From an uncultured Chromatiales bacterium (GTDB lineage Bacteria; Pseudomonadota; Gammaproteobacteria; RBG-16-57-12): DNA of 63,937 bases. The DNA is taken from contig CAZKZP010000008.1 in NCBI GenBank assembly GCA_964557295.1, forward strand, positions 22,897 through 86,833, read 5' to 3'. Shown here one piece after another: positions 5,030-24,398 of the stretch (position 1 is its first letter; each line of letters starts with the position of its first letter). Below the pieces are notes generated by a model. The model ran no database searches. It was given only the letters and a program-made list of their open reading frames with translations, and was not told the origin of the DNA. The translations under genes and the position numbers were made by a program.

Positions 5030-5097
5030 GCGCGGGACATGACCAGGTTATCATACCGCACGTTATTTAATTCAGATAAGCGTAGGAGAAAACAAGT

Positions 5098-7112: not shown

Positions 7113-7154
7113 CGGCAGTATCTCGGACCCAGGGACGGGTCCGTAACCCGTGCA

Positions 7155-9178: not shown

Positions 9179-9207
9179 CCGATCCGTTCATATGAGATGC
9201 AAACACC

Positions 9208-11043
9208 ATGGCTGATGAATTACTAGTCTATTACGAGAAGGAACTGGCGTTCATCCGTCAAATGGGTGCAGAGTTCGCCAAGGAACACCCGAAAATTGCC
9301 GGCCGGCTGGGCATCAATGACGACGTTATCGAAGATCCGCATGTCTCCCGCCTGATCGAGGCGTTTGCCTATCTGAACGCGCGCATCCAGCACAAGCTCG
9401 ACGATGATTTTCCGGAATTATCGGATGCGCTGCTCAACGTGCTTTTCCCGCACTACCAGCGTCCGATCCCGTCCATGTCAATTGTTCACTTCGAGCCGGA
9501 CCGGGAACAGCTTGAATCCAAATATGTTATTCCGCGCGAAACTCAGCTCGACACGGAACAGTTTCAAGGTGTGTTCTGCCGATTCTCGACTGTCTATCCC
9601 ACTGAGCTGCTCCCTCTCGAGTTGACCGCTGCCAGTCTAATGGGATTGCCGCTCACCACGCCAGGCGCCGCGCGCGCACGCGGCGCGATGAGCGTGCTCA
9701 AGCTCTCCTTCAGCACACTTTCCGAGCAGATAAAAATCGCTGACATTCGTCCAGACAAGCTACGGTTCTTTCTGAAAGGTCAGCCGCAGTATGTCAACCC
9801 ACTTTACCAGATGCTGATGAAGGATTGCGTCACCGTCGTGGCTACCGCATCCGAGACGGATGTTGCACCGGTTTTTCTTGGGCAGAATGCCATACAGCCG
9901 GTTGGCTTTGGTTTGGACGAAGGCTTGCTGCCGTATCCTGCCGCCTCCTTCCCAGGATACCGGCTGATCACAGAATTGTTCGTGTTTCCCGAAAAGTTTC
10001 TGTTTTTCGACATCACGAATCTGGAGAAGTGCATTCCCGCCAATGCCACCAACCAGATGCACATTTATATTTATCTGCGCAGCTCGAACATCGAGCTGGA
10101 GCACAATATCAATCAGCAAACCTTCGTGATGGGATGCACCCCGGTCGTCAATCTATTTACGCAGAAAACCGATCCGATAAAGGTCGATCATACCCATCAT
10201 GAGTATCATGTCGTGCCAGACGCGCGCCGCCCGGTCGGATATGAAGTCTATTCCATCGACAAGGTAATGGCATCGACTGCATCGGGTGAAGAAGAGGAAT
10301 TTTTCCCCATGTATGGGCTCGACCACGGCAACCGCGACACACAGCGGCATGCCTACTGGCATGCCGTTCGCCGCAGCGCCAAGCTTGGAATTTATGAGCG
10401 TGACGAAGGCACGGATGTTTTCTTGAATCTCGTTGATTTGGATTTCAATCCCAACCTGCCCGATGACCGCACCCTGAGCATCACGGCCACGTGCAGCAAT
10501 CGTGACATGCCATCACGCCTGCCATTTACGATGGATCAACCGAAACTACAGTGCGCCAATGGCTCCCCACCCTGCTCTCGTATTCGAATGCTGTACAAGC
10601 CGACCAATGTGGTACGCCCGCCATTGCGCAATCATGCCCGCTGGCGCTTGATCTCGCACCTCAATCTCAATTTTTTATCACTGACGGGAAATGACGACGC
10701 CACCCAGGCGCTGAAAGAGATTTTACGCCTGTACGACTTCAAGGAATCATCCGTTACTCGTGCCCTGGTCGACTCCATCACCGCGGTGCGCGCACACCCG
10801 ATCAGCGCGCCCTTGACCATTGATGACCATGCCACCATGTGCCGCGGCATGGAGATCGAAATAGAACTCGATGATCTGCTGCTATCAGGTTGCAGCGCCT
10901 ATCTGTTTGCGACCGTCCTGGAATATTTTTTCGCGCTCTACTGTTCGATAAACAGCTTCACGAAGGTGTTGGTCAAAGTAAAAAGCAAAGAAGGTTATTT
11001 AAAGAAATGTCCACCACGCGCCGGCAACAAAGTATTCCTGTAA
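9208..11043 (+). CDS. tssF: T6SS baseplate protein TssF
   Basis: 611 aa. The N-terminus LLVYYEKELAFIRQMGAEFAKEHPKIAGRLG is the canonical TssF start. Confidence 0.9.
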   Translation: MADELLVYYEKELAFIRQMGAEFAKEHPKIAGRLGINDDVIEDPHVSRLIEAFAYLNARIQHKLDDDFPELSDALLNVLFPHYQRPIPSMSIVHFEPDREQLESKYVIPRETQLDTEQFQGVFCRFSTVYPTELLPLELTAASLMGLPLTTPGAARARGAMSVLKLSFSTLSEQIKIADIRPDKLRFFLKGQPQYVNPLYQMLMKDCVTVVATASETDVAPVFLGQNAIQPVGFGLDEGLLPYPAASFPGYRLITELFVFPEKFLFFDITNLEKCIPANATNQMHIYIYLRSSNIELEHNINQQTFVMGCTPVVNLFTQKTDPIKVDHTHHEYHVVPDARRPVGYEVYSIDKVMASTASGEEEEFFPMYGLDHGNRDTQRHAYWHAVRRSAKLGIYERDEGTDVFLNLVDLDFNPNLPDDRTLSITATCSNRDMPSRLPFTMDQPKLQCANGSPPCSRIRMLYKPTNVVRPPLRNHARWRLISHLNLNFLSLTGNDDATQALKEILRLYDFKESSVTRALVDSITAVRAHPISAPLTIDDHATMCRGMEIEIELDDLLLSGCSAYLFATVLEYFFALYCSINSFTKVLVKVKSKEGYLKKCPPRAGNKVFL

Positions 11044-12143
11044 TTCGAAAACTGTACGATGATGCCGCTGCATTCCGCTTTGTTCAGGCAGTGCGGCTGC
11101 TGGAGCGTTTTGCCGCCTTATCCTGCCAGGATGGGTCATCATTGGCCAGCAAACCTGTAGCACGCTTTCTGCCACCTACGTCGGAATCAGTTCGCTTCCA
11201 TGCCAATTCTTCACTGTCGTTTGCGCCGTCAGAGATTGATTCGATCTCCCTGGACAACTCCGCGGCTGACACTCATCGTCAGCCTCAATTGACAGTCAAC
11301 TTCATAAGCCTGACCGGCGCCGCCGGCGTGCTGCCCTATCATTATACCGAACTTCTGCTGCAACGGTTGAAACTGAAAGACAAGACCCTGGCGGCGTTTT
11401 TTGATCTGTTCAATCACCGCACCATTTCGCTGTTTTACCAAGCCTCGGTGAAATACCGGCTGCCACTCGAATATGAGCGAAACAAGCTCAATCCGCTCCC
11501 CGGTTCGGCTACCGACAGCCATACCCAAGTGTTACTGTCGCTTGTTGGTCTGGGAACCAAAAAACTGACTCAGCGGCTGTATACGCGCGATGAGTCCTTG
11601 CTGTATTACGCGGGGTTATTCAGCAGCAAGATTCGCACCGCACACGGGCTTAGTCAAATTCTGCAACACCATTTCCGGATTCCAGTTGAGATCAAGGAAT
11701 TCATCGGTGAATGGCAGGATCTCATCGATGATGTTCGCACCCGCATGCCTAGCGTGGAAAACCGTCGTGGCCAGAACAATTCTCTCGGCAAATCGGTCAT
11801 GCTGGGTCGCAAAGGCTGGTTTGCCCAAGCGAAATTCCATGTCATTCTCGGGCCGTTGTCACCAACACAGTTACACCAATTTGCTCCAGGCACCGCCACA
11901 CTCAAGGCGCTCGATGAAATCGTCCGGCTGTACGTCAATTTTGAACATAGCTATGAATTCATAATGCGGATACGCCGCGCCGACATTCCAGGGCGTATCG
12001 CATTGAGTAAAGCGCAACCTCCGGTGATGGGCTGGAATACCTGGCTGGCGAGCTCTGCCCTCCGATCCGCGGATCCTGAGCAGACCGTTGATATCCCGGT
12101 CTCTCCCCGGCGGATCAAGATATCGCCTGCAACATTTAAGTAG
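11007..12143 (+). CDS. tssG: T6SS baseplate protein TssG
   Basis: Start chosen at ATG 11007 (MSTTRRQQ...), overlapping the tssF end by 37 nt. The motif AAAFRFVQAVRLLER is typical of the TssG N-terminus. The longer ORF-track start at 10890 lies inside tssF. Confidence 0.85.
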   Translation: MSTTRRQQSIPVIRKLYDDAAAFRFVQAVRLLERFAALSCQDGSSLASKPVARFLPPTSESVRFHANSSLSFAPSEIDSISLDNSAADTHRQPQLTVNFISLTGAAGVLPYHYTELLLQRLKLKDKTLAAFFDLFNHRTISLFYQASVKYRLPLEYERNKLNPLPGSATDSHTQVLLSLVGLGTKKLTQRLYTRDESLLYYAGLFSSKIRTAHGLSQILQHHFRIPVEIKEFIGEWQDLIDDVRTRMPSVENRRGQNNSLGKSVMLGRKGWFAQAKFHVILGPLSPTQLHQFAPGTATLKALDEIVRLYVNFEHSYEFIMRIRRADIPGRIALSKAQPPVMGWNTWLASSALRSADPEQTVDIPVSPRRIKISPATFK

Positions 12144-12366: not shown

Positions 12367-12774
12367 ATGACGAGATGGATCAACATACTTCTCTCAATCC
12401 TTGTGATTTCCGGTTGCGTGAGCCCGGCCCCGGTGCCCAACGCCCAAGGGTTGGCCATCGCAAACATCAAAGTCGAGCAGCGCGGCAAGTACGAGGATAA
12501 TCGCCCATCCATGATGGGTATTTGCAAGGGTTTTTTGCTATCGGAAAATCAAGTGCGCGAATTTTTCGATCATTCCAGCTACCTGCGAGACGACGAGTCC
12601 AGAGCGCGTTATACGATTCTGCCCTGCTATTCCAGCGGCACCGCCACGATCAACGCCGAACCCTATCATTGGGTGATTCGCGCCGGTGGCGTCGGCGAAT
12701 TTTATAACGAGAATGACCGCTTTATTAAAATATGCGGCAAGACATGTTGCAATAAGTTACCCAGCATTTGCTGA
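12367..12774 (+). CDS. Small Cys-rich lipoprotein of unknown function embedded between tssG and clpV
   Basis: 135 aa with signal peptide and lipobox (LSILVISGC). Five further Cys residues, four of them near the C-terminus (KICGKTCCNKLPSIC). I recognise no family. Confidence 0.6.
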   Translation: MTRWINILLSILVISGCVSPAPVPNAQGLAIANIKVEQRGKYEDNRPSMMGICKGFLLSENQVREFFDHSSYLRDDESRARYTILPCYSSGTATINAEPYHWVIRAGGVGEFYNENDRFIKICGKTCCNKLPSIC

Positions 12775-12823: not shown

Positions 12824-15541
12824 ATGACAACGAGGACGCCGATGATAACGATCGATTTGAAATCCCTGGTAGGTAAACTGAGCGAGCCATCGCGCACCGC
12901 GCTGGAAGCTGCCGCCGGTTTGTGTCTTGCCCGCATGCATTACAACATCGAAATCGAGCACTGGCTACTCAAGCTGCTCGAAGTCCCCAACACCGATTTG
13001 CGCGCCCTGTTGCAAAAATATCAAATCGATATCGGCCGACTGGCGCTGGAAATCAATCAGGAACTGGACCACATCAAATCAGGTAACGCGCGCGCGCCCG
13101 CGCTGTCGCCGACGTTGGTGGATATCGCCAAGAATGCCTGGATGCTCGCTTCGATCGAGTTTGGCCATCCACAAGTCACCTCCGCCCACATCCTGGCGGC
13201 GCTGATGTTGGATGACAATCTGCGTCGCTCGACTGACGTCAGCAGCGGCGTGTTGAAGACCATACAGCCTGAATCGCTACGTGACATGGTGCGCGCCATC
13301 GTCGGCACCACCTCTGAATCCCGCTCGGCCTCCGCCAAGAACAATCTGTCTGAAGTCGATGCCAGCAGCATGGGCAATTCGGCAGTTCCCAGCAATTCAC
13401 CGGCACTCGACAAATACACTATCAACCTCACAGATGATGCCAAGAACGGCAAGATCGATCCTGTGCTGGGACGCGATGAGGAGATCCGCCAGATCATCGA
13501 CATCCTGATCCGCCGCCGGCAGAACAACCCGATCCTCACCGGTGAGGCTGGCGTAGGGAAAACAGCCGTGGTCGAAGGATTCGCCCTGCGCATAGCCACC
13601 GGAGACGTGCCAGATCAGTTGAAGAATGTCAGCGTACGGGTGCTGGATCTTGGTTTGCTGCAGGCCGGCGCCAGCGTCAAAGGAGAATTCGAAAATCGAC
13701 TCAAGTCGGTCATCAGCGAGGTGCGCGCATCGCCGCAACCCATCATCCTGTTCATCGACGAGGCGCATACACTGATCGGCGCGGGCGGCAAAGAAGGACA
13801 AGGGGACGCCGCCAATCTACTCAAACCGGCGCTGGCGCGCGGCGAGTTGCGCACGATTGCCGCCACCACCTGGGCGGAATACAAAAAATATTTCGAGCGC
13901 GACCCTGCGCTGACGCGCCGCTTCCAAGTCGTCAAGATCGAGGAACCCAGTGAAGACAAGGCCATCAACATGATGCGCGCCATTTCGCAACCGCTACAGA
14001 ATCATCATGGCGTGCGCATACTGGACGAGGCCATCGTCGACTCAGTGCGCCTCTCCAGCCGCTACATCACCGCGCGTCAATTGCCGGACAAGTCTGTCAG
14101 CCTGCTGGATACCGCTTGCGCCCGCGTGGCGCTCAGCCAGAGCGCGACGCCGGCGGCCATCGAGGACACCCGCCGCAACATTTTACAGTGCAAGACCAAT
14201 ATCGCTTCGCTGGCAAAGGAGCATGCTGCGCTCGGCACCAACAGCGAGCGCATCACCGAACTCAAGCAGCACCAGCTCGACCTGGAGACGCAGCTCGAAA
14301 TCCAGGAGACTCAATGGAAGCAGGAAAAAGACTGCGTGGCGCAGATTCATCAACTGCAAAAGCAGATCGAGGAAGATTTTCACCTGCGCGCCATGAGCAA
14401 GGAGGTGCGCAGCCAGCAAAAATTGTCCGAACCGATGACAGATGCCGCGCGCGCCGTGCTCACCCAGCAGCTGCACTCCGCGATGAGTGAGCTGGATAAA
14501 ATCCAGGGCGCGACCCCAATGATTCAAGTCAACGTCGACAGTCAGGCCATTGCCGAGGTGGTGGCCAACTGGACCGGCATCCCCGTCGGCAAGATGATGG
14601 CCGATGAAATCCAGACCGTGATCAATCTCAAGGACGTCCTGGCCGCGCGCGTCATTGGCCAGTCACACGCGCTGAACGCCATCGCCGAAAGCATTCGCAC
14701 TGCCCGCGCCGGGCTGACCGATCCGCGCAAACCGATCGGCGTATTTTTCATGGTCGGCCCCAGCGGCGTGGGCAAGACCGAAACCGCCCTGGCGCTCGCC
14801 GATCTGCTCTACGGCGGCGAACAGAATCTCACCACCATCAACATGTCCGAATTCAAGGAAGAACACAAAGTCTCCATGCTGCTGGGTTCACCACCCGGCT
14901 ACGTCGGCTATGGCGAGGGCGGCGTGCTGACCGAAGCCGTCCGCCGCAAGCCATATAGCGTCGTGCTGCTGGATGAGATGGAAAAAGCGCATCCCGGTGT
15001 GCAGGATGTCTTTTACAACCTGTTCGACAAGGGTACGATCAAGGACGGCGAAGGCCGCGACATCGATTTCAGAAACACCGTCATCATCATGACGTCTAAC
15101 GCCGCGGAAGAACACATTCGCGCCATGTGCGCGCAAAGCGCAACCCTGCCGGAACCGGATGTGCTGCTGGACAACTTCCGACCGCACTTGCTCAGGTATT
15201 TCAAGCCGGCATTTCTCGGCCGCACCACCATCATTCCCTATTATCCGCTGAATGATGAAAACTTGTTGAAGATCACCGCGCTCAACATGAAGCGCATCGA
15301 AAAACGCATCAAACAGTGCTACAACGCCGGCTTCAGCTACGACGAGGATGTGTTGTTGCATATCGTCGCGCGCTGCCAGGAAGTCGATACGGGCGCCAGA
15401 AACATCGAGAACATCATCAACCGCTCGCTGCTTCCCGAACTGTCGGCGCATTGTCTTGCCCGGATGGCGCGCGATGAAGCCATCAGCAGCATCCATGTTG
15501 GGGTGTCGGAGGACGGCCAGTTCCTTTGTCAAATCAGCTGA
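12824..15541 (+). CDS. tssH: T6SS AAA+ ATPase ClpV (TssH)
   Basis: 905 aa with a ClpV-type N-domain (LKSLVGKLSEPSRTALEAAAGLCLARMHYNIEIEHWLLKLLE). Two AAA+ modules carry Walker A motifs GEAGVGKT and GPSGVGKT. Confidence 0.9.
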   Translation: MTTRTPMITIDLKSLVGKLSEPSRTALEAAAGLCLARMHYNIEIEHWLLKLLEVPNTDLRALLQKYQIDIGRLALEINQELDHIKSGNARAPALSPTLVDIAKNAWMLASIEFGHPQVTSAHILAALMLDDNLRRSTDVSSGVLKTIQPESLRDMVRAIVGTTSESRSASAKNNLSEVDASSMGNSAVPSNSPALDKYTINLTDDAKNGKIDPVLGRDEEIRQIIDILIRRRQNNPILTGEAGVGKTAVVEGFALRIATGDVPDQLKNVSVRVLDLGLLQAGASVKGEFENRLKSVISEVRASPQPIILFIDEAHTLIGAGGKEGQGDAANLLKPALARGELRTIAATTWAEYKKYFERDPALTRRFQVVKIEEPSEDKAINMMRAISQPLQNHHGVRILDEAIVDSVRLSSRYITARQLPDKSVSLLDTACARVALSQSATPAAIEDTRRNILQCKTNIASLAKEHAALGTNSERITELKQHQLDLETQLEIQETQWKQEKDCVAQIHQLQKQIEEDFHLRAMSKEVRSQQKLSEPMTDAARAVLTQQLHSAMSELDKIQGATPMIQVNVDSQAIAEVVANWTGIPVGKMMADEIQTVINLKDVLAARVIGQSHALNAIAESIRTARAGLTDPRKPIGVFFMVGPSGVGKTETALALADLLYGGEQNLTTINMSEFKEEHKVSMLLGSPPGYVGYGEGGVLTEAVRRKPYSVVLLDEMEKAHPGVQDVFYNLFDKGTIKDGEGRDIDFRNTVIIMTSNAAEEHIRAMCAQSATLPEPDVLLDNFRPHLLRYFKPAFLGRTTIIPYYPLNDENLLKITALNMKRIEKRIKQCYNAGFSYDEDVLLHIVARCQEVDTGARNIENIINRSLLPELSAHCLARMARDEAISSIHVGVSEDGQFLCQIS

Positions 15542-15593: not shown

Positions 15594-17006
15594 ATGACCA
15601 TCTGCTCACGCTATTTCATTATCGCGCTGCTGGCTTGCCTGCTGTTGTCCACGGCAAGCCTCGCCGCGCCGACCGCCGCACCGCAATCGACCGAGTTCGA
15701 GCGGCTCGATCAGCAATTCCAGCAATTCACCGCTGGTTTGTATTCGAAGCACGCGCCTTCGCTGGCACCAACCATCTTCGAAACCCCGGAACAACTCAAG
15801 ACAGCGGTGGCGCAGCATCTCGCCAACAAAGAGCCGCTGCTGGCCGCTGCGGCCGTGCACACCAATCTAGCGCTCGTCCAGGCGCATATCAACCATCCCG
15901 CGGCGATCGACTATATTGCGCTGCTACTCGATCAGAATGCGTGGCAAGCCGCCAGCGCGCTCCATGCCCTCGCGCAAGAGGAAGGCAGCAAGGCCCTGAT
16001 CTCCAATGTCTCCTATCTGGTTGCCCGCCACCACTTTGAACGCAACGACTGGCAGCGCTGCATCGAACTGCTGGACGGCATCACCGCCGACTTGCCGCAA
16101 GCGCGCGCCCAGCATGCGCTGCTGATGCAAGGCATCGCCTTGCAGAAACTGAAGCAACACCGTGACGCCCTCAAGTTCTATGCCAAGATTTCATCGACCT
16201 CACCGTATTACGTTCAGGCGCGCATGAACATGGCGGTCGCCAATATCCGCCAGGATTGGTGGACCGATGCGCACATCATCATCAATGACCTGCTGAAAGA
16301 TCCGGCCGTAGCCGGTGATGTGCAAACCCAAGACCGGCTGTACACCATGCTGGGTTACTCCTTTCTGCAACAACGTTTCTATCGCAACGCCCGCGAATCC
16401 TTTCGCAATGTTGGACAAGACAGCATTTACGCGCATCAGGCCCTGCTGGGTATCGCACTGGCCGCAGGCCATCAGGACGACCACATCGGCGCACTCAATG
16501 CGGCGCGACTGCTCAAGGACAGCCACAAACCGGTCTTGCCAGTCGATGAGGCCTATCTCTTGCTGCCCTATTTTTATGAAAAGCTCCAGCAGCCCGCCAC
16601 CGCCTCCGCCGCGTATGACGAAGCGGTGCAGTATTTCACCAATCACATCGCCGCGATAAATGCCGTGCTGCAGATCGATTTGTCCGGCTTTCGCCAACAG
16701 CATCAGGTCGAGCGCGACCAGCGGCTGCATTTCCAAAACCAGTCGATCGCACTCCCCAAGCGCATGCCGCGCGCCTTTCTGCACCATTACCAACAGCTCG
16801 ATCAATACCGCGCTCCACTGGCGGCATTGGCGGACCCGCAACTCTCCCGGCAATTCACCCAGCTTGAGGATGCCTACGCCGCCGCGCTTTATACGCTGAC
16901 ACATGAGGCGCTCAATGAGCGCATCTCCCAGCTGTCGCATTATCTAAATCAATCGCGGTACAGCATTGCGCGCCTGTTTGACACCCACGAGGCCATCAAG
17001 CCGTGA
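15594..17006 (+). CDS. Exported helical-repeat (TPR-like) protein, module gene A
   Basis: Start set at ATG 15594, 52 nt after the clpV stop; the ORF-track start at 15348 overlaps clpV. Signal peptide MTICSRYFIIALLACLLLSTASLAAP. 470 aa, Ala/Leu/Gln-rich helical repeats, no catalytic motif seen. Confidence 0.65.
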   Translation: MTICSRYFIIALLACLLLSTASLAAPTAAPQSTEFERLDQQFQQFTAGLYSKHAPSLAPTIFETPEQLKTAVAQHLANKEPLLAAAAVHTNLALVQAHINHPAAIDYIALLLDQNAWQAASALHALAQEEGSKALISNVSYLVARHHFERNDWQRCIELLDGITADLPQARAQHALLMQGIALQKLKQHRDALKFYAKISSTSPYYVQARMNMAVANIRQDWWTDAHIIINDLLKDPAVAGDVQTQDRLYTMLGYSFLQQRFYRNARESFRNVGQDSIYAHQALLGIALAAGHQDDHIGALNAARLLKDSHKPVLPVDEAYLLLPYFYEKLQQPATASAAYDEAVQYFTNHIAAINAVLQIDLSGFRQQHQVERDQRLHFQNQSIALPKRMPRAFLHHYQQLDQYRAPLAALADPQLSRQFTQLEDAYAAALYTLTHEALNERISQLSHYLNQSRYSIARLFDTHEAIKP

Positions 17007-19792
17007 TACGCATTTTTGTCTTGACCGCATGCGTTTTTTGCCTCGCCGCCTGTTCGGCGCCGGCGGTTCGTCCCACCTTGCGCGATGCCGACGTGGACGG
17101 CCCGCACCAGAATCAAAACAGCGCGGTGATTGCACCGCGCAGCGCGGAGGAGATCAAACGCGCCTACGCGGAATACCTCCGGTTCGCGGCAAAAAATGAG
17201 CTTTCGCGCCAAGATGCCTTGCTGCGCATGGCCCAGATGGAATTCAACCTTTCCGAAAAAATGGCGAGAGACATGGACCAAGAGCTCGCTAATGCCTCCG
17301 AGGACGAGTTTCTCGCGGCTTCCTTGAAACACACGATCGAATTGCTGCTGACATCGCTGCGCGACTATCCGGACTCAAAAGACAACGACAAGGCGTATTA
17401 TCAACTCGCCAGGGCCTATGATCAGCTCGGCGAATTCGCAAAATCACTTGAAGCCTTGCAGCAGCTGACGACCAAGCACAAATCCTCGCCACTTTATCTG
17501 GAGTCGCTGTTTCGCATCGCGGAAGACAATTTCAGCCGCAAGCAGTACAGCAAGGCCGAGGATCTTTACACCGAGATCATCATCGCCAAAAAGAACAATC
17601 CGTTTTATGAGAAGGCACTCTACAAACGCGGCTGGTCCCGATTCAAGCAGGATTATTACAGCGATGCCGCCGATGATTTCGCCAAGGCCATCGGCCTCAA
17701 TCCATTCGATGATTACCGCGAGCTGGCCGCCGCGCAGAAAGAACAGATGGATGAGTATTTTCGCGCCATCGCACTCACATTCATCTATCAAGGTGGCGCT
17801 GCCCCGCTGTCCTCCTTCATGAAGGATCACCCGGATTACAAGCACGTCTACCCCATCTATTCCAGTGTGAGCGACCTTTATTTGAAGCAGGAACAGTACA
17901 CCGATGCAGCCGACATCCTGGAACGCTTCATCAAAGTCGCGCCAAAATCACAGCACGCGCCCGCGGCGCAGCTGAAAATCATCGACATCTGGAAAACCGC
18001 AGGATTCACTCAGCGAGTGATCCATTCGATCGAATCCGCCTATGGCGCATACCATTCCAAAAGCGTTTTCTGGTCCGACAAGTCCGCAGACTCTGATGCC
18101 TACAAGCAAGCACGGGCCGCGCTGAAGGAACACATCATGACCGCGGCAGCCCACCAGCACCATGAATACAACCAGAGCCGCAAAGAGCAATCCTTCGAAC
18201 AAGCAAAAAAATGGTATGAGCGATATCTGGAACACTATGAAACCGAAGCGCGCAAGGATAACGTGCATTTCCTGTACGCGGATCTGCTCAATCGCCACAC
18301 GGATCTTCCGCAGGCTTTGCACCACTATGAACAGGCCGCCTATGACTCGGACATCATACTCAACAAGGATGCCGCTTATGAATCAATCATCGTTTCCGCA
18401 CAAATCTACAAGAATGCGCGCGGCGCCGATTCCGCGAAGGCCCATCTCGACAAACTGATCAAATACTCGCAACTGTACACCCAGCTTTACCCGACCGACA
18501 GCCGCGCCGTGAGCATATTGACCTATGCCGCCGAAACCGCTTTCGAAACAGAGAAATATGCCGAGGCCATCGAGATCGCCGGCTCGGCATCAGCCAGTGG
18601 CGCTGGTGCCACGAACTTGAATCTGATCAAAGCGCATTCATATTACCGGTTACAGCAATACCAGAGTGCCGAGGAAAGTTATCGCTCCATCAGCGACGTA
18701 TCCCCCGCGTATCGGAACATGCGGCAAGTACAGGACAATCTTGCACTCTCGATTTACAAGCAAGCGGAAGCCGCGGCGGTGGCCAAGGATATCGAGCAGG
18801 CGCTGCATCATTATTCACGCATCTCCACCACGGCGACGACGTCGGCGGTGGCCGCAACCGGCCTCTATGAGGCCATTGCGCTGGCCATCACTAATGGCCG
18901 ATGGGAAAACGCTGTCGCTTATTGTCGACGCTTCCAGACGCTTTACCCAGAACATCCGCAAAGCCACGATGTGACCAAACAGCTCAGCATTGCGCTATTG
19001 GAATCCAAGCAATACACCGATGCGGCCACTGTCCTCGACACCCTTTCGAAAAGCGACGAGGATAGCGAATACCAGATGGCTGCATTGTGGAAGGCTGCTG
19101 AATTATATGAGGCGGAAAAAAACCATACGGCCGCGCTAAGTAAATATGAGGAATACGTCGAGCGTTTCAGATCACCCTACCCGCAGTATCTAGAGGCAAT
19201 GCACAAGCTGGTGCAGCTTTATAGTCAGCAAGGCGAAAATCTGAAGGCGATGAGCTGGCACCGTAGGATTATCGACGAAGATGGTCGAGCCAACAGCGCC
19301 AGCAAGAATGATCGCACAAAGTACATTGCTTCACTTGCTGCGATTGCACTTGCGGAGCAGGAACAGGCTGGCTTCAAATCTATCCGTCTGGCGCTACCCT
19401 TGGAGCAGACACTCAAGCACAAGAAACAGGTCATGCAGGCAGCGATCACGCTTTATAGTAAGGCTGCATCGTATGGCATCGCCGATACCGTCACGGCGGC
19501 GACCTACGCCATTGCCGAAATCTACCTTGAGTTCAGCAAATCGTTGCTGGAGTCCGAGCGGCCTGGCAACCTCAGCATCACCGAGGAAGAACAATATAAA
19601 ATTCTTCTGGAGGACCAGGCCTTTCCATTCGAAGAGAAGGCTATTGAATTCTATGAGGCGAATCTTGGGCACATCAAGAATGGTCATCAAGATCAATGGG
19701 TCGCAAAGAGTTACGCGCAACTAAAGACACTGTTCCCAACCCGCTACAACCGTGAGGCTTTGCTGGATGAGTATGTTGATGTCCCGCATTAA
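17003..19792 (+). CDS. Large TPR-repeat lipoprotein (BamD/YbgF-like repeats), module gene B
   Basis: 929 aa. The GTG start overlaps the gene A stop (GTGA). Lipobox VFCLAAC|S. Many TPR-like units, for example KAYYQLARAYDQLGEFAKSLEALQQL and EKALYKRGWSRFKQDYYSDAADDFAKAI. Confidence 0.7.
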   Translation: MIRIFVLTACVFCLAACSAPAVRPTLRDADVDGPHQNQNSAVIAPRSAEEIKRAYAEYLRFAAKNELSRQDALLRMAQMEFNLSEKMARDMDQELANASEDEFLAASLKHTIELLLTSLRDYPDSKDNDKAYYQLARAYDQLGEFAKSLEALQQLTTKHKSSPLYLESLFRIAEDNFSRKQYSKAEDLYTEIIIAKKNNPFYEKALYKRGWSRFKQDYYSDAADDFAKAIGLNPFDDYRELAAAQKEQMDEYFRAIALTFIYQGGAAPLSSFMKDHPDYKHVYPIYSSVSDLYLKQEQYTDAADILERFIKVAPKSQHAPAAQLKIIDIWKTAGFTQRVIHSIESAYGAYHSKSVFWSDKSADSDAYKQARAALKEHIMTAAAHQHHEYNQSRKEQSFEQAKKWYERYLEHYETEARKDNVHFLYADLLNRHTDLPQALHHYEQAAYDSDIILNKDAAYESIIVSAQIYKNARGADSAKAHLDKLIKYSQLYTQLYPTDSRAVSILTYAAETAFETEKYAEAIEIAGSASASGAGATNLNLIKAHSYYRLQQYQSAEESYRSISDVSPAYRNMRQVQDNLALSIYKQAEAAAVAKDIEQALHHYSRISTTATTSAVAATGLYEAIALAITNGRWENAVAYCRRFQTLYPEHPQSHDVTKQLSIALLESKQYTDAATVLDTLSKSDEDSEYQMAALWKAAELYEAEKNHTAALSKYEEYVERFRSPYPQYLEAMHKLVQLYSQQGENLKAMSWHRRIIDEDGRANSASKNDRTKYIASLAAIALAEQEQAGFKSIRLALPLEQTLKHKKQVMQAAITLYSKAASYGIADTVTAATYAIAEIYLEFSKSLLESERPGNLSITEEEQYKILLEDQAFPFEEKAIEFYEANLGHIKNGHQDQWVAKSYAQLKTLFPTRYNREALLDEYVDVPH

Positions 19793-20396
19793 TCGCCACC
19801 TGATCAGTCTGTCGTTACTGCTGTGGTTAACGGCATGTTCCTCCATGGGCACGGCACCCGACAAGGATAAATCATCGCTAACGTCAACGGCGGAAAATAC
19901 TGATGCCGCGCTCGCTGACGCTGAGCGCGCGCTATACGCGCAAGCGCTCGCAGATCTGCAGGCGAATCGGTTCGCACCCGCAGAGGCCGCCTTCACGCGG
20001 CTCGCCGAGCAGCATCCCAAACTCGCCGGCCCCTGGGCCAACCTCGGCTTGATCTATATCAAGCAGGATCAACTCGATCGAGCCGCGGATATGCTCATGC
20101 GCGCCCTGGAAAACCAACCGGATCTGGCGCAAGCGAAGCAGTTGCTGGGATACATCGAGAACAAACGCGGGCATTACCTCAAGGCACGTGATTTATATCT
20201 CGAAGCGCTCGCCGCTAAACCCGACTACGCCGTCGCGCACTACAATCTAGCGCTGCTGTATGACATCTATCTGCGCGATATACCCAAGGCCATTGAACAC
20301 TACACGCGCTATCTTGCATTGGCCGGTCGCGAGGACAAACGCACCGCCGACTGGGTCAATGAGCTCACATCCTCTCTGAAGCGAGATGAACAATGA
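19779..20396 (+). CDS. TPR lipoprotein, module gene C
   Basis: Start chosen at ATG 19779 (MSRINRHLISLSLLLWLTAC|SS, lipobox); 19767 and 19773 are alternatives. It overlaps the end of gene B by 14 nt. About 205 aa with 3-4 TPR units (LGLIYIKQDQLDRAADMLMRALENQPD...). Confidence 0.65.
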   Translation: MSRINRHLISLSLLLWLTACSSMGTAPDKDKSSLTSTAENTDAALADAERALYAQALADLQANRFAPAEAAFTRLAEQHPKLAGPWANLGLIYIKQDQLDRAADMLMRALENQPDLAQAKQLLGYIENKRGHYLKARDLYLEALAAKPDYAVAHYNLALLYDIYLRDIPKAIEHYTRYLALAGREDKRTADWVNELTSSLKRDEQ

Positions 20397-20647
20397 AACG
20401 GACCATGCTCATCACATGCACACTCCTGCTCCTTCCCGGACTAAACTCTCTGCACGCCGAAGAAACGGTGCAGATGGAAACCACCATTATCAAAGGAAAT
20501 AAGGAGCTTCCGCAAATTCTCTACATCGTGCCTTGGCGCGATCTGAATGAGGAACGACGCGAGGAACAACAGCTCGTGTTGCACAGTCTTTACGGGGAAT
20601 TATTCGATCCGGTATTTCCTGAGCGTGCGAACTCCCCGACCGAGTGA
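20393..20647 (+). CDS. Small secreted protein, module gene D
   Basis: 84 aa. The ATG overlaps the gene C stop (ATGA). Signal peptide MKRTMLITCTLLLLPGLNSLHA|EE. The mature ~60-aa part is a charged peptide. No family recognised. Confidence 0.5.
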   Translation: MKRTMLITCTLLLLPGLNSLHAEETVQMETTIIKGNKELPQILYIVPWRDLNEERREEQQLVLHSLYGELFDPVFPERANSPTE

Positions 20648-20667: not shown

Positions 20668-22923
20668 CTACCCCAGCCGAACTCGATACGCCTCTTCCAG
20701 CGAGGTTTCCTTGGCATAGGCACGGCTCAAGGCATTTCGCGTGAGCGAGACCATGCCATTTTCAATCGCCTTTTTATAGATGGTTTCAGTGCTGGCACGT
20801 TGTTCGATCAATGTGCGCAGTTCGGAACTCATCGTGAGCAGCTCATACACCGCCATGCGCCCGCTGTATCCGATGTGGTGACATTGATCACAGCCGCGGC
20901 CGCGATAGAATACCGTGTCTTCAGGCACATTCAGTGAATGGCGCATAGTTCGATTGACCGGCTCCACCTCAAGGCAATGTGCGCAGTTCTTGCGCACCAG
21001 GCGTTGCGCCAGCACACCGATGACAGTCGAGCTGACCAAATACGGCTCAACCCCCATTTCGAGCAATCGAGTGATGGTTCCCGCCGCGCTGTTGGTGTGC
21101 AGTGTGGTGAGCACCAAGTGCCCGGTGAGCGCGCTTTCAACGGCGATCTTGGCCGTTTCGGCATCGCGGATCTCTCCGACCATGATGACATCCGGATCAT
21201 GGCGCAATATATGGCGCAATGATTCGGCGAAGGTGTAACCCAGATTCGCACGCACATGGATCTGTTCGACCCCATCGATCTGGTATTCCACCGGATCTTC
21301 GACCGTGATGATATTGACGTTCTGGGTGATGACTTCCTGCAACGCGGCGTACAAGGTCGTGGTCTTGCCGGAGCCCGTCGGGCCGGTGACCAGCAACATG
21401 CCGTAATTCATATGGAGCAGGTCGCGAAAGATTTCCTCGTCGCTGCTCGAAAATCCCAATTCGGAGATCTGCCGCAAGCCCACCTTGGTGTTGAGCAGGC
21501 GCAGCACCACGCTCTCGCCGTTGATCGTCGGGATGACCGAGATGCGCAGATCCACCAAGCCGTCCCGGTCGCTGATGCGCGTTCGGCCATCCTGCGGCAG
21601 GCGCCGTTCGGTGATATCCATGCGCCCGAGGATCTTAATGCGGCTGACGACGGCCGGGAGCAGGCTGCGGGAAAAGGAGCGGATCTTGATCAAGGTGCCG
21701 TCGATGCGATAGAGCATATGGACTTCGTGCTCGAGCGGCCGGATATGAATGTCCGATGCCTTCTTGCGGATGGCGTCGATGATGATGCCATTGACCAGGC
21801 GCACGATTGGCATTTCCGAGGCCAAACGCATCGCTTCCTGGATATCAACGATTTCGTCATCGGAGAATTTGGCGCGCTGCTCTTCCGCCACATTCAGCTC
21901 ATCGACCAGGCGCGTATCGCTGCCGTAGTGCTTGTCGAGGGCGAGTTCGATCTCCTCACGGGAGGATACCGCAAGCTCGATCTGCTTGCCGGTGATGAAA
22001 CGCAGCATGCCGATGGCTTCCACATTGGTGGGATCCTCGATCGCAACAACGATCCGGTCACGATACTGGGAGAGCGGCAGCATCATGTACTTGAACGCCA
22101 TTTCTCCCGGCACCGCGTTCAGCAGATAGTGATCGATTTCGAAATCCTTCAGCATCACATACGGGATGCCGAATTTGCGCGCCAGTTTCAGATGCACGTC
22201 CCTGGAGTTGACCGCGCCCATGCCCTCGAGTATCGCCCCGAGTTTCTTCCACTTTTCGATTTTTTGCTGTTCCAAGGCACGCGTCAGCGTGTCCGAGGTG
22301 ATCAAGCCGCTTTCGACCAGCAATTCACCAATCCGGTGATTGTCATAATATTGAAGATGGTTTGCCGCGTATTGCGTTTGCTTTTCGAGAAAATCGATCA
22401 ATTCCTTCGCCGTATGGACTTGGAATGCATGATCGGCGAGCTTGTCCGTCGAGGCCTGAATCGGCGCGAGTTTGCCCGCTGGGGACGCATCGAGTTTGAA
22501 GCCGCTCAACTGGAGGCTCGGTATGAATACGCGCTTGATCAGGCGGTCTACATGCAAAACGAACAAGTGCAGCCCGCACACATCTTTTTCATGCGCGCAC
22601 AGCCGCCCGGCGAGGGATTTGCCATCGGTGTAATCGGCCTGAAAATTCTGGAGCGCAACACCGCCGCTCGCCACCGGCTCCGCTAACTTGAGCTTCTGTT
22701 TGAATTCAAGGATGCGCAGATTCTGAAATGGAATGCGCACTGCAATGTCATCACGGCCCATCACAAGGGCGCACTGTTCCTGATCACTCAGGCCAAGCAA
22801 CTCACCCGCCTGCTCGCCACCGGCAACCAAGTGGGCCGTCACAAGTCGGGAGTGGCGCAAGGTTCCGGCCGTGGAAACACACGGCGGAATCTCCGGCAAT
22901 GGATTGAATTCGACATGCTCCAC
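20668..22923 (-). CDS. Orphan GspE/PilB-family secretion ATPase with an unassigned ~190-aa N-terminal extension and a T2SSE_N/MshEN-like region
   Basis: 751 aa. GTG start preceded by GGGAGGAG. Walker A GPTGSGKTTT, Walker B/Asp box DPDVIMVGEIRD, His box GHLVLTTLHTN, and tetra-Cys CAHC...CDQC. The motif RIGELLVESGLITSDTLTRALEQQ is at about residues 197-220. No gspF/pilC, pilin or secretin gene is nearby. Confidence 0.85.
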   Translation of the reverse strand: MEHVEFNPLPEIPPCVSTAGTLRHSRLVTAHLVAGGEQAGELLGLSDQEQCALVMGRDDIAVRIPFQNLRILEFKQKLKLAEPVASGGVALQNFQADYTDGKSLAGRLCAHEKDVCGLHLFVLHVDRLIKRVFIPSLQLSGFKLDASPAGKLAPIQASTDKLADHAFQVHTAKELIDFLEKQTQYAANHLQYYDNHRIGELLVESGLITSDTLTRALEQQKIEKWKKLGAILEGMGAVNSRDVHLKLARKFGIPYVMLKDFEIDHYLLNAVPGEMAFKYMMLPLSQYRDRIVVAIEDPTNVEAIGMLRFITGKQIELAVSSREEIELALDKHYGSDTRLVDELNVAEEQRAKFSDDEIVDIQEAMRLASEMPIVRLVNGIIIDAIRKKASDIHIRPLEHEVHMLYRIDGTLIKIRSFSRSLLPAVVSRIKILGRMDITERRLPQDGRTRISDRDGLVDLRISVIPTINGESVVLRLLNTKVGLRQISELGFSSSDEEIFRDLLHMNYGMLLVTGPTGSGKTTTLYAALQEVITQNVNIITVEDPVEYQIDGVEQIHVRANLGYTFAESLRHILRHDPDVIMVGEIRDAETAKIAVESALTGHLVLTTLHTNSAAGTITRLLEMGVEPYLVSSTVIGVLAQRLVRKNCAHCLEVEPVNRTMRHSLNVPEDTVFYRGRGCDQCHHIGYSGRMAVYELLTMSSELRTLIEQRASTETIYKKAIENGMVSLTRNALSRAYAKETSLEEAYRVRLG

Positions 22924-23009: not shown

Positions 23010-24398
23010 TTACTTGCCGGTGTGCTTCATCAGCCGGCGCTTCTTGCGCACCTGTCGCTCCGTCAAGATATTGCGCCGCCCTGCAAAGGGGTTTTTTCCC
23101 GAGCGGAATTCAAGCTTGATCGGTGTGCCTTCGATGCGCAGCGCCTTGCGGTAGACGTTGCTCAAGTAGCGCTTGTAGGCATCCGGCACGGCCTCGGCCT
23201 GATTGCCGTGGATAACGATGAGCGGCGGATTCTTTCCGCCTTGATGCGCATAACGCAACTTGATGCGCCGGCCTTTGACCAGCGGCGGCTGATGCGCTTG
23301 CAAGGCGTCTTCCAGAATCCTGGTCAGCGCCGGCGTGGGCATGTCGATGTTCGCGGAAGCGAAGGCGCGATCGATGGATTCATACAGATTGCCCACTCCG
23401 CTGCCATGCAGCGCGGAGATGAAATGGAATTTGGCGAAATCGATGAAGTCCAAGCGCAGCTCGAGATCACTTCTGAGTTTGTCCTTCTCCTCCGGCGTCA
23501 TCCCGTCCCATTTATTGACAGCGATGATGACCGCGCGTCCCGCGTGCAACACCAGACCGAGCAGACTCGCATCCTGATCCGTCACGCTCTCGCGGGCATC
23601 GATCACCAGGATCACGACATGGGCGGACTCGATCGCTTGCAGCGTTTTGATCACGCTGAATCTTTCAACGCCCTCGTCGACACTCCGCTTGCGGCGCATG
23701 CCGGCCGTATCGATCAAGGTGTAGCGTTTGCCGTGATGTTCGAATGGGATGCTGATGCTGTCACGCGTGGTGCCGGGCAGATCAAACACCACCACGCGCT
23801 CTTCCCCGAGCAAGCGGTTGACCAGCGTGGACTTGCCGACATTGGGCCGCCCGACTACGGCGATTTTGATGCCGGCATCCTCTTCGATGGCCTGCGCTTC
23901 CCCGGTAATTTGATCCGCCGGAATCACCTGCTCGATCAGTGCGCTCACCCCGCGCCCATGCGCGGCGGCGATGGGATAACACTCGCCCAAGCCCAGTGCG
24001 TAGAAATCGGATTTGGCCATTTCCGCATCAAGGCCGTCGGTCTTGTTGACGACCAGGAACACCGGCTTGCCCGTCTGGCGCAGACGCTTGGCGATGGCAT
24101 GATCACCCGGAGTCAGCCCGTCTCTGGCATCGACCATGAACAGCACGCTATCGGCTTCCTCGATGGCCTGGAGGGTCTGGTGCGCCATTTCGCCATCGAT
24201 GCCGCGCTCATCACCGCTTAAGCCTCCGGTGTCGACGACGATGTAATGGCGCTCGCCCAGCCGGCCGGTGCCGTAGATACGATCGCGCGTCACGCCAGGT
24301 TGGTCGGCGACGATGGCGTCGCGCGTTTTGGTCAGGCAGTTGAACAGCGTAGATTTGCCCACATTGGGGCGCCCGACGAGGGCGATGACAGGCAACAT
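23010..24398 (-). CDS. der: Ribosome-associated GTPase Der (EngA)
   Basis: 462 aa with two tandem G domains ([12 protein letters not shown] and [12 protein letters not shown]) plus a KH-like C-terminus. Confidence 0.95.

Follow-up and report, generated by a model that had tools for sequence, protein, structure and literature searches.

A T6SS-Linked Module of Exported TPR Proteins Probably Related to the Agl-Glt Core Complex in an Uncultured Chromatiales Bacterium

Gene Content of the Locus

The window, meaning the whole stretch of 63,937 nucleotides analysed, carries two divergent arms of T6SS genes, the first of which ends in a module of four genes, designated A to D:

1-1308, minus strand: tssK (arm 2; Pfam and reading frame), cut by the window edge
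1332-1835, minus strand: tssJ (arm 2; Pfam)
1853-3364, minus strand: fha (arm 2, divergent; Pfam)
3923-12143, plus strand: tssA, tssB, tssC1, tssC2, tssE, tssF and tssG (arm 1, upstream of clpV; Pfam)
12367-12774, plus strand: 135-aa lipoprotein between tssG and clpV, lipobox conserved
12824-15541, plus strand: clpV (tssH), directly upstream of the module; orthologues Pfam-labelled in related loci L001 and L002
15594-17006, plus strand: gene A, 470-aa periplasmic TPR protein with SPase-I signal peptide; putative GltC-like member
17003-19792, plus strand: gene B, 929-aa TPR lipoprotein (lipobox LAAC, Cys17); putative GltD-like central scaffold
19779-20396, plus strand: gene C, TPR lipoprotein of about 205 aa (lipobox LTAC); putative GltE-like protein
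20393-20647, plus strand: gene D, 84-aa secreted protein occupying the GltF slot

The four chained, exported open reading frames reported downstream of clpV by an initial annotation of this DNA are present. The ATG of gene A (15594) lies 52 nt after the clpV stop (15541); its reading frame is open from 15348, and the signal peptide starts at 15594. A promoter and terminator at this junction had been named as evidence against a link with clpV, and a simple consensus scan of the gap found no promoter-like or terminator-like site. Genes A and B overlap by GTGA (17003-17006), gene B stops with TAA at 19790-19792, and genes C and D overlap by ATGA (20393-20396), with the stop of D at 20647. Gene C could start at ATG 19767, 19773 or 19779, all of which precede its lipobox, giving a B/C overlap of 14 to 26 nt.

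The export signals proposed for all four proteins were borne out and are conserved in orthologues, with SPase-I-type signal peptides on A and D in all of them and a lipobox-like motif in 68 of 80 orthologues of B and 63 of 73 of C; the lipobox Cys17 of B is invariant (24/24 aligned homologues). S, A or G mostly follows the Cys of the lipobox, and the E. coli sorting rule suggests that B and C may be targeted to the outer membrane.

Arm 1 has an identical gene order in all related loci. The 135-aa lipoprotein, which matches no family and is present in 12 of 80 loci, is an optional accessory. The lower-GC block noted earlier is real, with a GC content of 0.54-0.55 over positions 1-20647 versus 0.605 over 23010-63937.

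Family Searches and Predicted Structures

The HMM searches that had been proposed returned only generic TPR matches for A, B and C, every one scoring under the family cut-offs. For B, which has more than 290 full-length homologues, the best NCBIfam match was CpoB/YbgF; with 63.9 bits against a cut-off of 90.1, spread over six stretches, this match reflects generic TPR similarity. The sole direct match of the module to any myxobacterial model was that of C to the NCBIfam GltE model NF033758 (E=7.8e-9), whose 35 bits fall far short of the cut-off, 225. One source names a homologue of B "TPR domain protein, putative component of TonB system". The AlphaFold2 model of B (mean pLDDT 86.3) is an all-alpha superhelix of TPRs whose N-terminal stretch is of low confidence, blocks across residues 1-50 averaging pLDDT 44-63. 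Foldseek matches of B are long TPR scaffolds only, among them 9hmf, a periplasmic TPR scaffold from the flagellar motor of Campylobacter.

No match to D was found in Pfam, NCBIfam or PDB, and AlphaFold2 run on D alone gave two short strands at pLDDT 61. The invariant motif IKGNKELPxILYxVPW stands at the N-terminus of mature D. Every one of its 88 close homologues is unnamed; a profile search reached 805 representative clusters at E<=1e-3, and the distant members retain the N-terminal motif. One distant member, P0462, is the small gene between the GltE-like gene and ExbB in a stand-alone operon (L165).

Conservation of the Linkage to the T6SS

The A-B-C-D unit was kept in 80/80 related species-level loci long enough to show all four genes, with A directly upstream of B in every locus, so the module is not a chance arrangement. 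The gene-neighbourhood analysis proposed earlier supports the claim that A-D are a TPR scaffold of the periplasm and outer membrane with a tie to the T6SS: in 54 of 80 loci the gene immediately preceding A is a clpV orthologue (72-82% identity), and 67 of 75 judgeable species-level loci have T6SS or T6SS-linked motor genes. Beyond the 54 clpV loci, 12 have other T6SS genes and one has the kinase-motor block only. In about 19 loci, D is followed by a convergent hcp-vgrG-PAAR operon. Loci in which the module has separated from clpV retain it together with hcp-vgrG-PAAR (L015, L026, L036 and L163) or with kinase-exbB-exbD-exbD-gltG (L047 and L060). Against such a tie, about 5-8 of the 75 loci have no T6SS gene within 10 kb, and about 100 kb separate A-D from the T6SS core in one or more genomes. 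The convergent GspE-like ATPase, whose co-occurrence with the module had also been raised, adjoins A-D in none of the 80 loci and is unrelated to them.

In relatives, arm 2 continues beyond tssK with tssL, tssM, tagF, pppA, kinase-FGE, exbB, exbD, exbD and a gltG-like gene. Among metagenome loci found with TssK of the window, the order fha-tssJ-tssK-tssL-tssM-tagF-pppA-kinaseFGE occurs in all 24 full-length loci and exbB directly follows the kinase in 22, the remaining two being cut or without exbB; over the full 80 loci of this search, exbB is present in 35 and the kinase in 40. The same continuation occurs on contig CALNYZ010000018.1, and both T6SS arms are contiguous on one 2.1-Mb contig. 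The kinase of these relatives is PpkA-type and fused to a periplasmic TagR (FGE-sulfatase)-type domain, TagR being COG1262 of the FGE family. One kinase-FGE protein (P0238) is recorded on only one NCBI contig, whose 86,833 bp equal the size of the contig bearing gene B of the window, and 14 contig sizes are common to the match lists of B and the kinase. We infer that the motor half lies just past the left edge of the window, and thus that this genome has the motor arm. The earlier statement that no motor, TonB-like or OmpA-like gene is present holds for the window but misleads for the locus, as the other arm in relatives encodes a TolQR/ExbBD-type motor and a TonB-like protein. This split layout is carried by Kangiellaceae, Cellvibrionaceae, Colwellia, Psychromonas, Thiotrichaceae, Ectothiorhodospiraceae and Woeseiaceae. 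The T6SS cluster of Teredinibacter turnerae (TERTU_1639-1668) is directly bordered by homologues of AglRQS (TERTU_1670-1672).

Homology to the Stand-Alone Agl-Glt Core Operon

A gammaproteobacterial Agl-Glt core operon was published in 2011 (Luciano et al. 2011, PMC3169522) and has been termed a stand-alone basal machinery (PMC3858216); its order is GltC-like, GltD-like, GltE-like, small protein, ExbB, ExbD, ExbD and GltG-like TonB (PMC3169522). The L165 operon has this content, with a GltC-like protein of 626 aa, GltD-like of 946, GltE-like of 213, small of 98 and GltG-like of 321. Protein A shares 22% identity over 249 aa with the first of these, a TPR protein (E=3e-12), B 31% over 889 aa with the GltD-like protein (E=9e-139), C 34% over 183 aa with the GltE-like TPR lipoprotein (E=5e-31), and D 53% over 32 aa with the small protein. 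Identities to the L165 counterparts are 59%, 43%, 42% and 32% for the T6SS-linked ExbB, ExbD, ExbD and GltG-like proteins; the last of these proteins passes NF033768 of NCBIfam (AgmX/PglI C-terminal domain; 69.7 bits, cut-off 40) and matches GltG at E=2.4e-10. The T6SS-linked set therefore has a homologue for each of the eight core-operon genes, motor included, in sizes and order that agree with Table S3 of PMC3169522.

From these alignments, A-D are very probably a paralogue of the periplasmic/outer-membrane half of the Agl-Glt core complex, and what the initial annotation called loosely reminiscent of Glt proteins is true homology to the core family. Its size-based mapping onto GltE, GltD and GltF does not hold; judged against the gammaproteobacterial operon, gene position and homology make A GltC-like, B GltD-like and C GltE-like and place D in the GltF slot. 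The proposal of a novel envelope system does not hold either, the module being a paralogue of the gene set in PMC3169522. Homologues in a known system away from T6SS loci, named earlier as evidence against the proposal, were found in part: close homologues (>=38% identity) are in T6SS loci, while the remoter paralogues form the known ExbBD-associated TPR operon outside them. Since these stand-alone paralogues occur without a T6SS, the core machine has a function of its own. No description of a core copy split over the ends of a T6SS locus was found in the literature, and this context, in many Gammaproteobacteria, appears to be new; it gives a long-unexplained core machine a testable job.

Proposed Function and Alternative Explanations

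The best explanation, to which we give a probability of roughly 0.55, is that A-D and the motor form a T6SS-dedicated, proton-motive-force-driven trans-envelope transducer, most likely one that feeds or positions the assembly of this T6SS under Fha/PpkA control. If the 2025 AlphaFold model of Agl-Glt (PMC11761067) is taken as a guide, B would be a TPR pillar tethered to the outer membrane, with its C-terminal part bound by C; A would connect the pillar with an outer-membrane partner, and the conserved N-terminal strand of D would bridge A to the TonB-like C-terminal domain of the GltG-like inner-membrane protein, itself driven by an ExbB/ExbD/ExbD stator. As the motor half directly follows a PpkA-type kinase with a TagR-type domain, the eight proteins may act as one energised transducer that sets where or when a T6SS regulated by Fha, PpkA, PppA and TagF assembles, most likely taking the place of TagQRST as envelope input to the kinase. 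A functional dependence on or for the T6SS is likely; the narrower idea that the module is the input to the PpkA-Fha switch is tentative, the tie between kinase and motor being positional.

The same proton-driven machine might instead act mechanically and independently of the kinase, moving, anchoring or localising TssJLM or remodelling the envelope at cell-cell contacts. Agl-Glt forms focal adhesions in this manner and transduces force rather than acting as a sensor (PMC11761067; PMC3858216); TPR outer-membrane lipoproteins TslA/TagM1 place T6SS assembly at contacts in i4b systems (PMC9251886); and B is predicted to be a long rigid scaffold, with 9hmf among its matches. Six relatives carry, next to hcp, a ShlB-type outer-membrane transporter and a giant protein from which an adhesin partner could come, but the ShlB-type gene is not universal, and the motor genes sit directly after the kinase even when apart from the T6SS core (L047 and L060), which makes this role somewhat unlikely. 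An independent envelope machine with a basal core-complex function, travelling with the T6SS island and without functional tie to it, would fit the stand-alone paralogous operons (PMC3169522 Table S3), the few A-D loci distant from T6SS genes and the lower GC of the entire block. It is improbable given that the operon halves occupy opposite ends of the T6SS locus in a layout conserved from Kangiellaceae to Woeseiaceae, that A follows clpV so closely, and that the module remains with hcp-vgrG or the T6SS kinase after rearrangement.

A static factor without a motor, comparable to TslA/TagM1, BamD or PilW and serving the T6SS membrane complex as a periplasmic TPR pilotin or in its assembly, would account for two outer-membrane-type TPR lipoproteins, the weak matches to BamD, CpoB, PilW and PorW models and a window without motor genes. 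However, those matches are all far below family cut-offs, and each core-operon gene, motor included, has its T6SS-linked homologue. TslA/TagM1 (PMC9251886) are likewise exported or lipoprotein TPR accessories encoded in the T6SS cluster, but A-D differ in two of four TslA-like features, lying downstream of clpV and not upstream of tssBC, with an acidic mature pI of 4.5-6.6 and not >8.7, and they comprise four proteins plus a motor; a static factor is thus very improbable. The database name of one B homologue points to TonB2-type nutrient uptake, in which the TPR protein TtpD2 of Vibrio vulnificus is reported to be essential for TonB2-dependent iron uptake (PMC6957404). Such a TtpD-like component is scarcely credible here, as no annotated locus has a gene for a TonB-dependent receptor, TtpB or TtpC, the motor combines two paralogues of ExbD with a C-terminal domain of the GltG/AgmX type, and the genomic context is T6SS.

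Comparison with Known Systems

Compared with the gammaproteobacterial core operon, all eight genes are matched, with the same sizes and the same order within each half. However, the set is split here, with A-D behind clpV at the end of arm 1 and, in relatives, the motor half behind the kinase at the end of arm 2; A is shorter (470 aa vs 550-690 aa), the C-terminal half of D differs, and the additional secreted protein (about 175 aa) that precedes the stand-alone operon (L165 and L166) is absent. The gliding and spore-coat machines of Myxococcus evolved from this eight-gene, proton-motive-force-driven core complex; there, a TolQR-like stator drives the TonB-like GltG, GltG engages the GltD pillar, and GltE, GltC and the small GltF complete the periplasmic transducer (PMC11761067). 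Agl-Glt and Agl-Nfs of Myxococcus xanthus thus have the ancestral core in common with the T6SS-linked set, AglR corresponding to ExbB and AglQ/AglS to the two ExbD proteins, and D is likened to GltF by gene slot. However, the loci examined have no homologues of GltA/B/H/K, CglB, GltI, GltJ or AglZ, their GltG-like protein (312-343 aa) is without a cytoplasmic FHA domain, and the carriers are not known gliders.

The layout of fha, tssJ, tssK, tssL, tssM, tagF, pppA and a ppkA-type kinase is the same as in the H1-T6SS of P. aeruginosa. Both systems have a TagR-type FGE domain, here fused to the kinase, and an outer-membrane lipoprotein and periplasmic proteins where, as in TagQRST-PpkA-Fha1-PppA, envelope input to the kinase is expected. 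However, these loci are without TagQ, TagS or TagT; the slot beside the kinase holds the ExbB/ExbD/ExbD/GltG-like motor, and A-D occupy the vgrG slot. TolB and Pal of the Tol-Pal system with CpoB/YbgF, like the receptor and TtpB/TtpC of TonB2 with TtpD, are absent here and two ExbD paralogues are present, but all three systems share a 5:2-family stator, a TonB/TolA-like transducer and one or more periplasmic TPR proteins.

Gene Organization and Export Signals of the A–D Module

The window begins within a T6SS locus laid out like HSI-I of P. aeruginosa, as follows from the genes identified (fha, tssJ, TssK, tssA–G, and clpV), with a second tssC occupying the hcp slot and the four-gene module A–D the vgrG slot. 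No homologue of hcp, vgrG, PAAR, or a kinase was found anywhere in the window, nor any of ExbB or ExbD, in agreement with the earlier remark that it holds no motor gene. The features of the T6SS block and its border are listed below.

Features of the T6SS block and its border (window coordinates)
1-1308, minus strand, N-terminal 436 aa of TssK, the frame continuing past the window edge
1332-1835, minus strand, tssJ (Pfam)
1853-3364, minus strand, fha (Pfam)
Upstream of clpV, plus strand, tssA, tssB, two tssC, tssE, tssF, and tssG (Pfam)
5622-7112 and 7155-8684, plus strand, the tandem tssC (VipB) paralogues, 41% identical
12367-12774, plus strand, 135-aa lipoprotein between tssG and clpV, no Pfam or NCBIfam match
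Stop at 15541, plus strand, clpV
15594-17006, plus strand, A, 470 aa, starting 52 nt after the clpV stop
17003-19792, plus strand, B, 929 aa, GTG start, GTGA overlap with the A stop
Start at ATG 19767, 19773, or 19779 (all in frame), plus strand, C, overlapping the B 3' end
20393-20647, plus strand, D, 84 aa, ATGA overlap with the C stop
20668-22923, minus strand, GspE/PilB-like ATPase, 751 aa, MshEN domain, convergent with D at 20 nt
23010-24398, minus strand, der, abutting the T6SS block

The tssC pair is kept in every related locus. The four chained ORFs that the initial annotation had placed after clpV were recovered in the arrangement claimed, and a simple consensus scan of the clpV-A gap revealed no promoter-like or terminator-like site. 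Only the overlap between B and C needs qualification, as the 14 nt proposed applies to one of the three possible ATGs of C, across which the overlap ranges from 14 to 26 nt. Export signals are indeed present on all four proteins and kept in their orthologues: A and D carry SPase-I-type signal peptides, the lipobox Cys17 of B is invariant in aligned homologues, and a lipobox-like motif was detected in 68/80 B orthologues and 63/73 C orthologues, the residue following the Cys being mostly S, A, or G. The mature proteins have a pI of 6.55 (A), 5.77 (B), 5.60 (C), and 4.54 (D).

HMM searches, as had been suggested, gave only generic, sub-threshold TPR matches for A–C in Pfam and NCBIfam, and none for D in either collection. 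The named TPR families were rejected by their curated NCBIfam cut-offs, including CpoB/YbgF (score 63.9, cut-off 90.1), BamD (50.2, cut-off 81.4), PilW (39.5, cut-off 154), PEP-CTERM/PrsT (39.4, cut-off 312), and PorW (20.2, cut-off 250). When the PDB was searched by sequence with a profile of B and with A and D, the matches had weak E-values and were confined to designed TPRs and CpoB, or there were none; B had no tblastn match among plasmids. The TPR-like TagJ/ImpE, which is cytoplasmic and binds TssB, was discarded because all four proteins are exported and no ImpE match was obtained. TslA/TagM1-like proteins (PMC9251886) likewise combine a signal peptide or lipoprotein signal with a TPR domain, but their genes precede tssBC in the same orientation and their pI is above 8.7, whereas A–D lie downstream of clpV and all have a lower pI; this assignment was therefore rejected on position and pI.

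In one predicted protein of the representative library (P0404, 361 aa), a C-like TPR lipoprotein and a D-like sequence are combined. This could be a read-through of gene calling or a natural fusion, which, if real, would support a physical pairing of C and D.

Kinase and Motor Genes of the Other Arm

The divergent arm of the T6SS, which leaves the window within tssK, was followed in 80 metagenome loci retrieved with the TssK of the window, 24 of which were full-length. All 24 share the order fha-tssJ-tssK-tssL-tssM-tagF-pppA, followed by the gene for a Ser/Thr kinase, about 860-900 aa long and ending in an FGE-sulfatase domain (Pfam). By synteny and Pfam, a MotA/ExbB gene comes after the kinase in 22/24, sometimes with a small ORF in between, the remaining two loci being cut or lacking it, and ExbD follows ExbB wherever the flank extends that far. 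On the 2.1-Mb contig CALNYZ010000018.1, this arm continues with ExbB, ExbD, ExbD, and a 312-aa protein, and is contiguous with the arm ending in clpV-A-B-C-D (related loci L164 and L013). The last protein of the arm is TonB-like; its orthologue in the related locus L060 matches the AgmX/PglI C-terminal domain model NF033768 of NCBIfam with 69.7 bits (cut-off 40) and also GltG (E = 2.4e-10). The two halves lie about 25-30 kb apart at the ends of the T6SS and are adjacent only in L047 and L060, where a divergent kinase-exbB-exbD-exbD-gltG block adjoins A–D with no T6SS core between them.

The motor arm is probably also present in the genome of the window, since a kinase-FGE protein found as a singleton (P0238) sits on one NCBI contig of 86,833 bp, the same size as the contig that carries B. 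Of the contig that carries B, 63,937 bp fall within the window, and about 11-12 kb would be required for the missing arm.

The kinase of this T6SS subtype is PpkA-like and fused to an FGE domain, the family of TagR; more than 3600 database proteins match it at E<=1e-50. Some of these are named by NCBI [quoted passage not shown]. Examples of the gene lie at 17536-20106 in L083, 5411-8077 in L060, and 10001-12775 in L164.

Homology to the Agl-Glt Core Operon

The core complex encoded by aglR, aglQ, aglS, gltD, gltE, gltG, and gltC has been described as conserved and linked in Gammaproteobacteria (PMC3169522). The operons of Table S3 in that work contain genes for a GltC-like protein of 550-690 aa, a GltD-like protein of 930-1016 aa, a GltE-like protein of 160-263 aa, one unlisted gene, AglR (205-272 aa), AglQ and AglS (about 160-190 aa each), and a GltG-like protein of 321-334 aa (PMC3169522). 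In this complex the motor consists of one TolQ/ExbB-like protein, AglR, and two of the TolR/ExbD kind, AglQ and AglS, and GltG is a TonB-like protein ending in the AgmX/PglI domain. A profile of D recovered 805 representative clusters, the distant ones retaining its N-terminal motif, and one of these distant relatives (P0462) is encoded within a stand-alone operon of the Table S3 type, L165. Homologues were found for each gene of L165 in the T6SS-linked set.

Comparison of the T6SS-linked proteins with the stand-alone operon L165
B and the 946-aa protein in GltD position (not MXAN_4870 itself, of which the Table S3 operons are given as homologues): 31% over 889 aa, E = 9e-139
C and the 213-aa protein: 34% over 183 aa, E = 5e-31
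A and the 626-aa protein: 22% over 249 aa, E = 3e-12, plus collinear weaker segments
D motif and the small protein: 53% over 32 aa, E = 2e-10
T6SS-linked ExbB: 59%, E = 6e-89
T6SS-linked first ExbD: 43%, E = 4e-37
T6SS-linked second ExbD: 42%, E = 8e-45
T6SS-linked GltG-like protein and the 321-aa protein: 32% over the full length, E = 1e-47

A–D thus correspond gene by gene to the opening half of the core operon, of which the T6SS-linked set is a full paralogous copy split over the ends of the T6SS locus. The module comprises a large exported GltD-like TPR protein, for which 930-1190 aa is the range in the core complex (PMC3169522), a GltE-like TPR lipoprotein after it, and a GltC-like TPR protein before it, and the core genes are divided between both ends of the T6SS locus rather than linked in a single cluster. 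A holds the position of the GltC-like protein of L165, and the stand-alone versions exceed it in length by about 100-200 aa. C is a family relative of Myxococcus xanthus GltE, not an equivalog, as the myxobacterial model NF033758 scored 35 bits against a cut-off of 225. The resemblance of D to GltF of M. xanthus (MXAN_4868) is limited to size, a signal peptide, the slot behind the GltE-like gene, and a predicted structure that is mostly disordered. The loose resemblance to Glt components remarked on in the initial annotation accordingly reflects true homology to the core operon, although the mapping by size was off, A being GltC-like and C GltE-like.

Published data for Teredinibacter turnerae are consistent with the split-operon reading, as the "orphan" AglRQS set TERTU_1670-1672 of Table S3 (PMC3169522) lies right beside the T6SS cluster TERTU_1639-1668 reported in the genome paper. 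Ahead of the gene for the GltC-like protein, the stand-alone operons have one more gene, for a secreted protein of about 175 aa (4126-4656 in L165 and 31-555 in L166), which is absent from the T6SS-linked version.

Conservation of the Module and Its Linkage to the T6SS

More than 290 full-length homologues of B were found, with 44-76% identity and nearly all unnamed. A scan with one genome per species detected relatives of B in 254 species, and the best 80 of these 254 were inspected. Almost all of the 80 are labelled Gammaproteobacteria, and they include Kangiellaceae, Cellvibrionaceae (Teredinibacter, Saccharophagus, and Cellvibrio), Colwellia, and Psychromonas, together with Thiotrichaceae, Ectothiorhodospiraceae, and Woeseiaceae. 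A, B, C, and D occur together in every locus of sufficient length. The co-occurrence with clpV and the T6SS raised by the initial annotation was evident, with clpV directly upstream of A in 54/80 loci, other T6SS genes in 12 more, and the kinase-motor block alone in one. The link to the T6SS is thus confirmed in 67 species-level loci among the best 80 of 254 species with a B relative. Five further loci are too short to judge, and eight have no T6SS or motor gene in their flanks, three of which have genes that elsewhere accompany the T6SS. In about 19 loci, D is followed by a convergent hcp-vgrG-DUF6484-DUF2169-PAAR-like-HEAT operon. On contig Ga0316204_10000020, A–D lie about 100 kb from the T6SS core, with genes for PAAR, DUF6931, vgrG, hcp, and a ShlB-type transporter as neighbours.

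Predicted Structures

The AlphaFold2 model of B is an all-alpha TPR superhelix (mean pLDDT 86.3), in which the 10-residue blocks of residues 1-50 average 44-63; such a low-confidence N-terminus would fit a flexible tether behind the lipid anchor. Foldseek searches with this model returned solely long TPR scaffolds, eukaryotic and with TM <0.25, although a periplasmic one, from the flagellar motor of Campylobacter, was also among the matches; this tells nothing beyond "scaffold". D modelled alone has low confidence and two short strands. In the 2025 AlphaFold model of the Agl-Glt machinery, GltD forms a central pillar, with the TonB-like domain of GltG binding its N-terminal part and GltE its C-terminal part; GltC joins outer-membrane barrels, and GltF, small and mostly disordered, contributes a strand to the domain of GltG, with its C-terminal helix inserted into GltC (PMC11761067). 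By analogy, the predicted models of B and D appear to match this arrangement. The N-terminal strand motif of D, IKGNKELPxILYxVPW, is common to T6SS-linked and stand-alone copies and its C-terminal half differs, and we infer that the strand may bind the conserved motor side and the tail the poorly conserved A.

Possible Role of the Core Complex in the T6SS

Together, A–D and the four proteins of the motor half probably form one trans-envelope transducer driven by the proton-motive force and dedicated to this T6SS. The system has all parts of the switch that works by threonine phosphorylation, with Fha and TagF in addition to a PpkA-type kinase and PppA. TagQ, TagS, and TagT are absent from this T6SS type, and the TagR-type domain (COG1262/FGE) is fused to the kinase. 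In HSI-I (gene order PA0070-PA0091), tagQRST adjoin the kinase, the spot taken here by the motor genes. The presence of a complete switch without TagQ, TagS, and TagT, combined with a motor next to the kinase, leads us to favour the transducer as the input that the kinase receives from the envelope. A close rival gives the same machine a mechanical function, in positioning or anchoring. The other explanations, in which the genes hitch-hike with the T6SS, act as a static pilotin, or belong to a TonB2-type uptake system, seem less likely. In TonB2 systems the TPR protein TtpD is linked with TtpB/TtpC, ExbB2, ExbD2, and TonB2; neither TtpB/TtpC-like genes nor TonB-dependent receptors were found in the annotated loci. 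In its fullest form, the envelope-input reading would have an ExbBD/TolQR-type proton-driven motor with a Glt-like shaft in the periplasm act as an integral, energised part of the T6SS, gripping or sensing the outer membrane at contacts and, through the fused PpkA-TagR kinase, triggering or aiming its firing, a tentative proposal to which we assign a probability of about 0.35. If true, no earlier T6SS would have had an envelope input driven by a motor, and the finding would point to an ancestral, non-motility job of the core behind the myxobacterial gliding machine.

The family and its motor partners are already known, and it is the T6SS link that appears to be new, judging from the literature searched. 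No paper on the association was found in searches combining the T6SS with ExbB/ExbD, AglR/GltD, gliding, or TolQ. Boyer 2009 makes no mention of ExbB, TolQ, TonB, or TPR, and in the passages of a 2026 review of T6SS accessory factors no such item is listed and a term search gave no TPR. The core complex has been recognized as conserved in many Gammaproteobacteria since the 2011 work, and T6SS maps have left its genes as unassigned neighbours of HSI-I-like clusters; the T6SS figure of the Teredinibacter turnerae genome paper greys out genes without a clear T6S link. Linkage to the T6SS would give the complex a concrete, testable role, and several carriers are cultured, among them Teredinibacter waterburyi Bs02, Aliikangiella coralliicola M105, Saccharophagus sp. 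K07, Cellvibrio sp. ARAG 10.3, and Psychromonas sp. Urea-02u-13, so that genetic testing is possible. For a machine that has been an orphan for 15 years, the link offers a function that can be tested, and it points to a possible new principle of T6SS control in which a contractile weapon may be governed by an energised trans-envelope transducer.

Genomic Surroundings and Additional Linked Genes

The lower GC content attributed to the block was verified, with 0.54-0.55 for positions 1-20647 and 0.605 for the rest of the window. Beyond der, the minus-strand ORFs extending to 32059 are taken by us, by order and size only, to be the housekeeping run bamB-yfgM-hisS-ispG-rodZ-pilW-rlmN-ndk. As the block abuts der and these ORFs read as housekeeping genes, it looks like an insertion next to der.

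The GspE/PilB-like ATPase convergent with D has an N-terminal extension of about 190 aa, and its MshEN domain is a c-di-GMP-binding domain. It is an orphan, with no pilus or T2SS partner genes alongside it in the window. Neighbourhood mining, as proposed earlier, found it adjoining A–D in none of the 80 related loci, and it was rejected as their partner. The 135-aa lipoprotein encoded between tssG and clpV shows a conserved lipobox as well as a CKGF motif; only 12/80 related loci carry its gene.

An outer-membrane transporter of the ShlB/FhaC type (POTRA_2) is encoded together with a giant protein (1172 to >3500 aa) beside hcp in at least six related loci (transporter at 19946-21985 in L008, 16432-18309 in L015, 13659-15611 in L060, and 17101-18987 in L163). 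The pair looks like T6SS-linked two-partner secretion and could provide the Glt-like module with a partner in the outer membrane or with an adhesin. Three genes (about 605, 278, and 165-174 aa) separate clpV from A in another related locus (L030, 3228-6387). The 605-aa and 278-aa proteins of L016 have no Pfam match. Immediately before A, the genes for 278 aa and approximately 165 aa are found again in L016 (5161-8313) and at the start of L022, and L016 also has the 605-aa gene, so these genes may represent a further optional accessory set.
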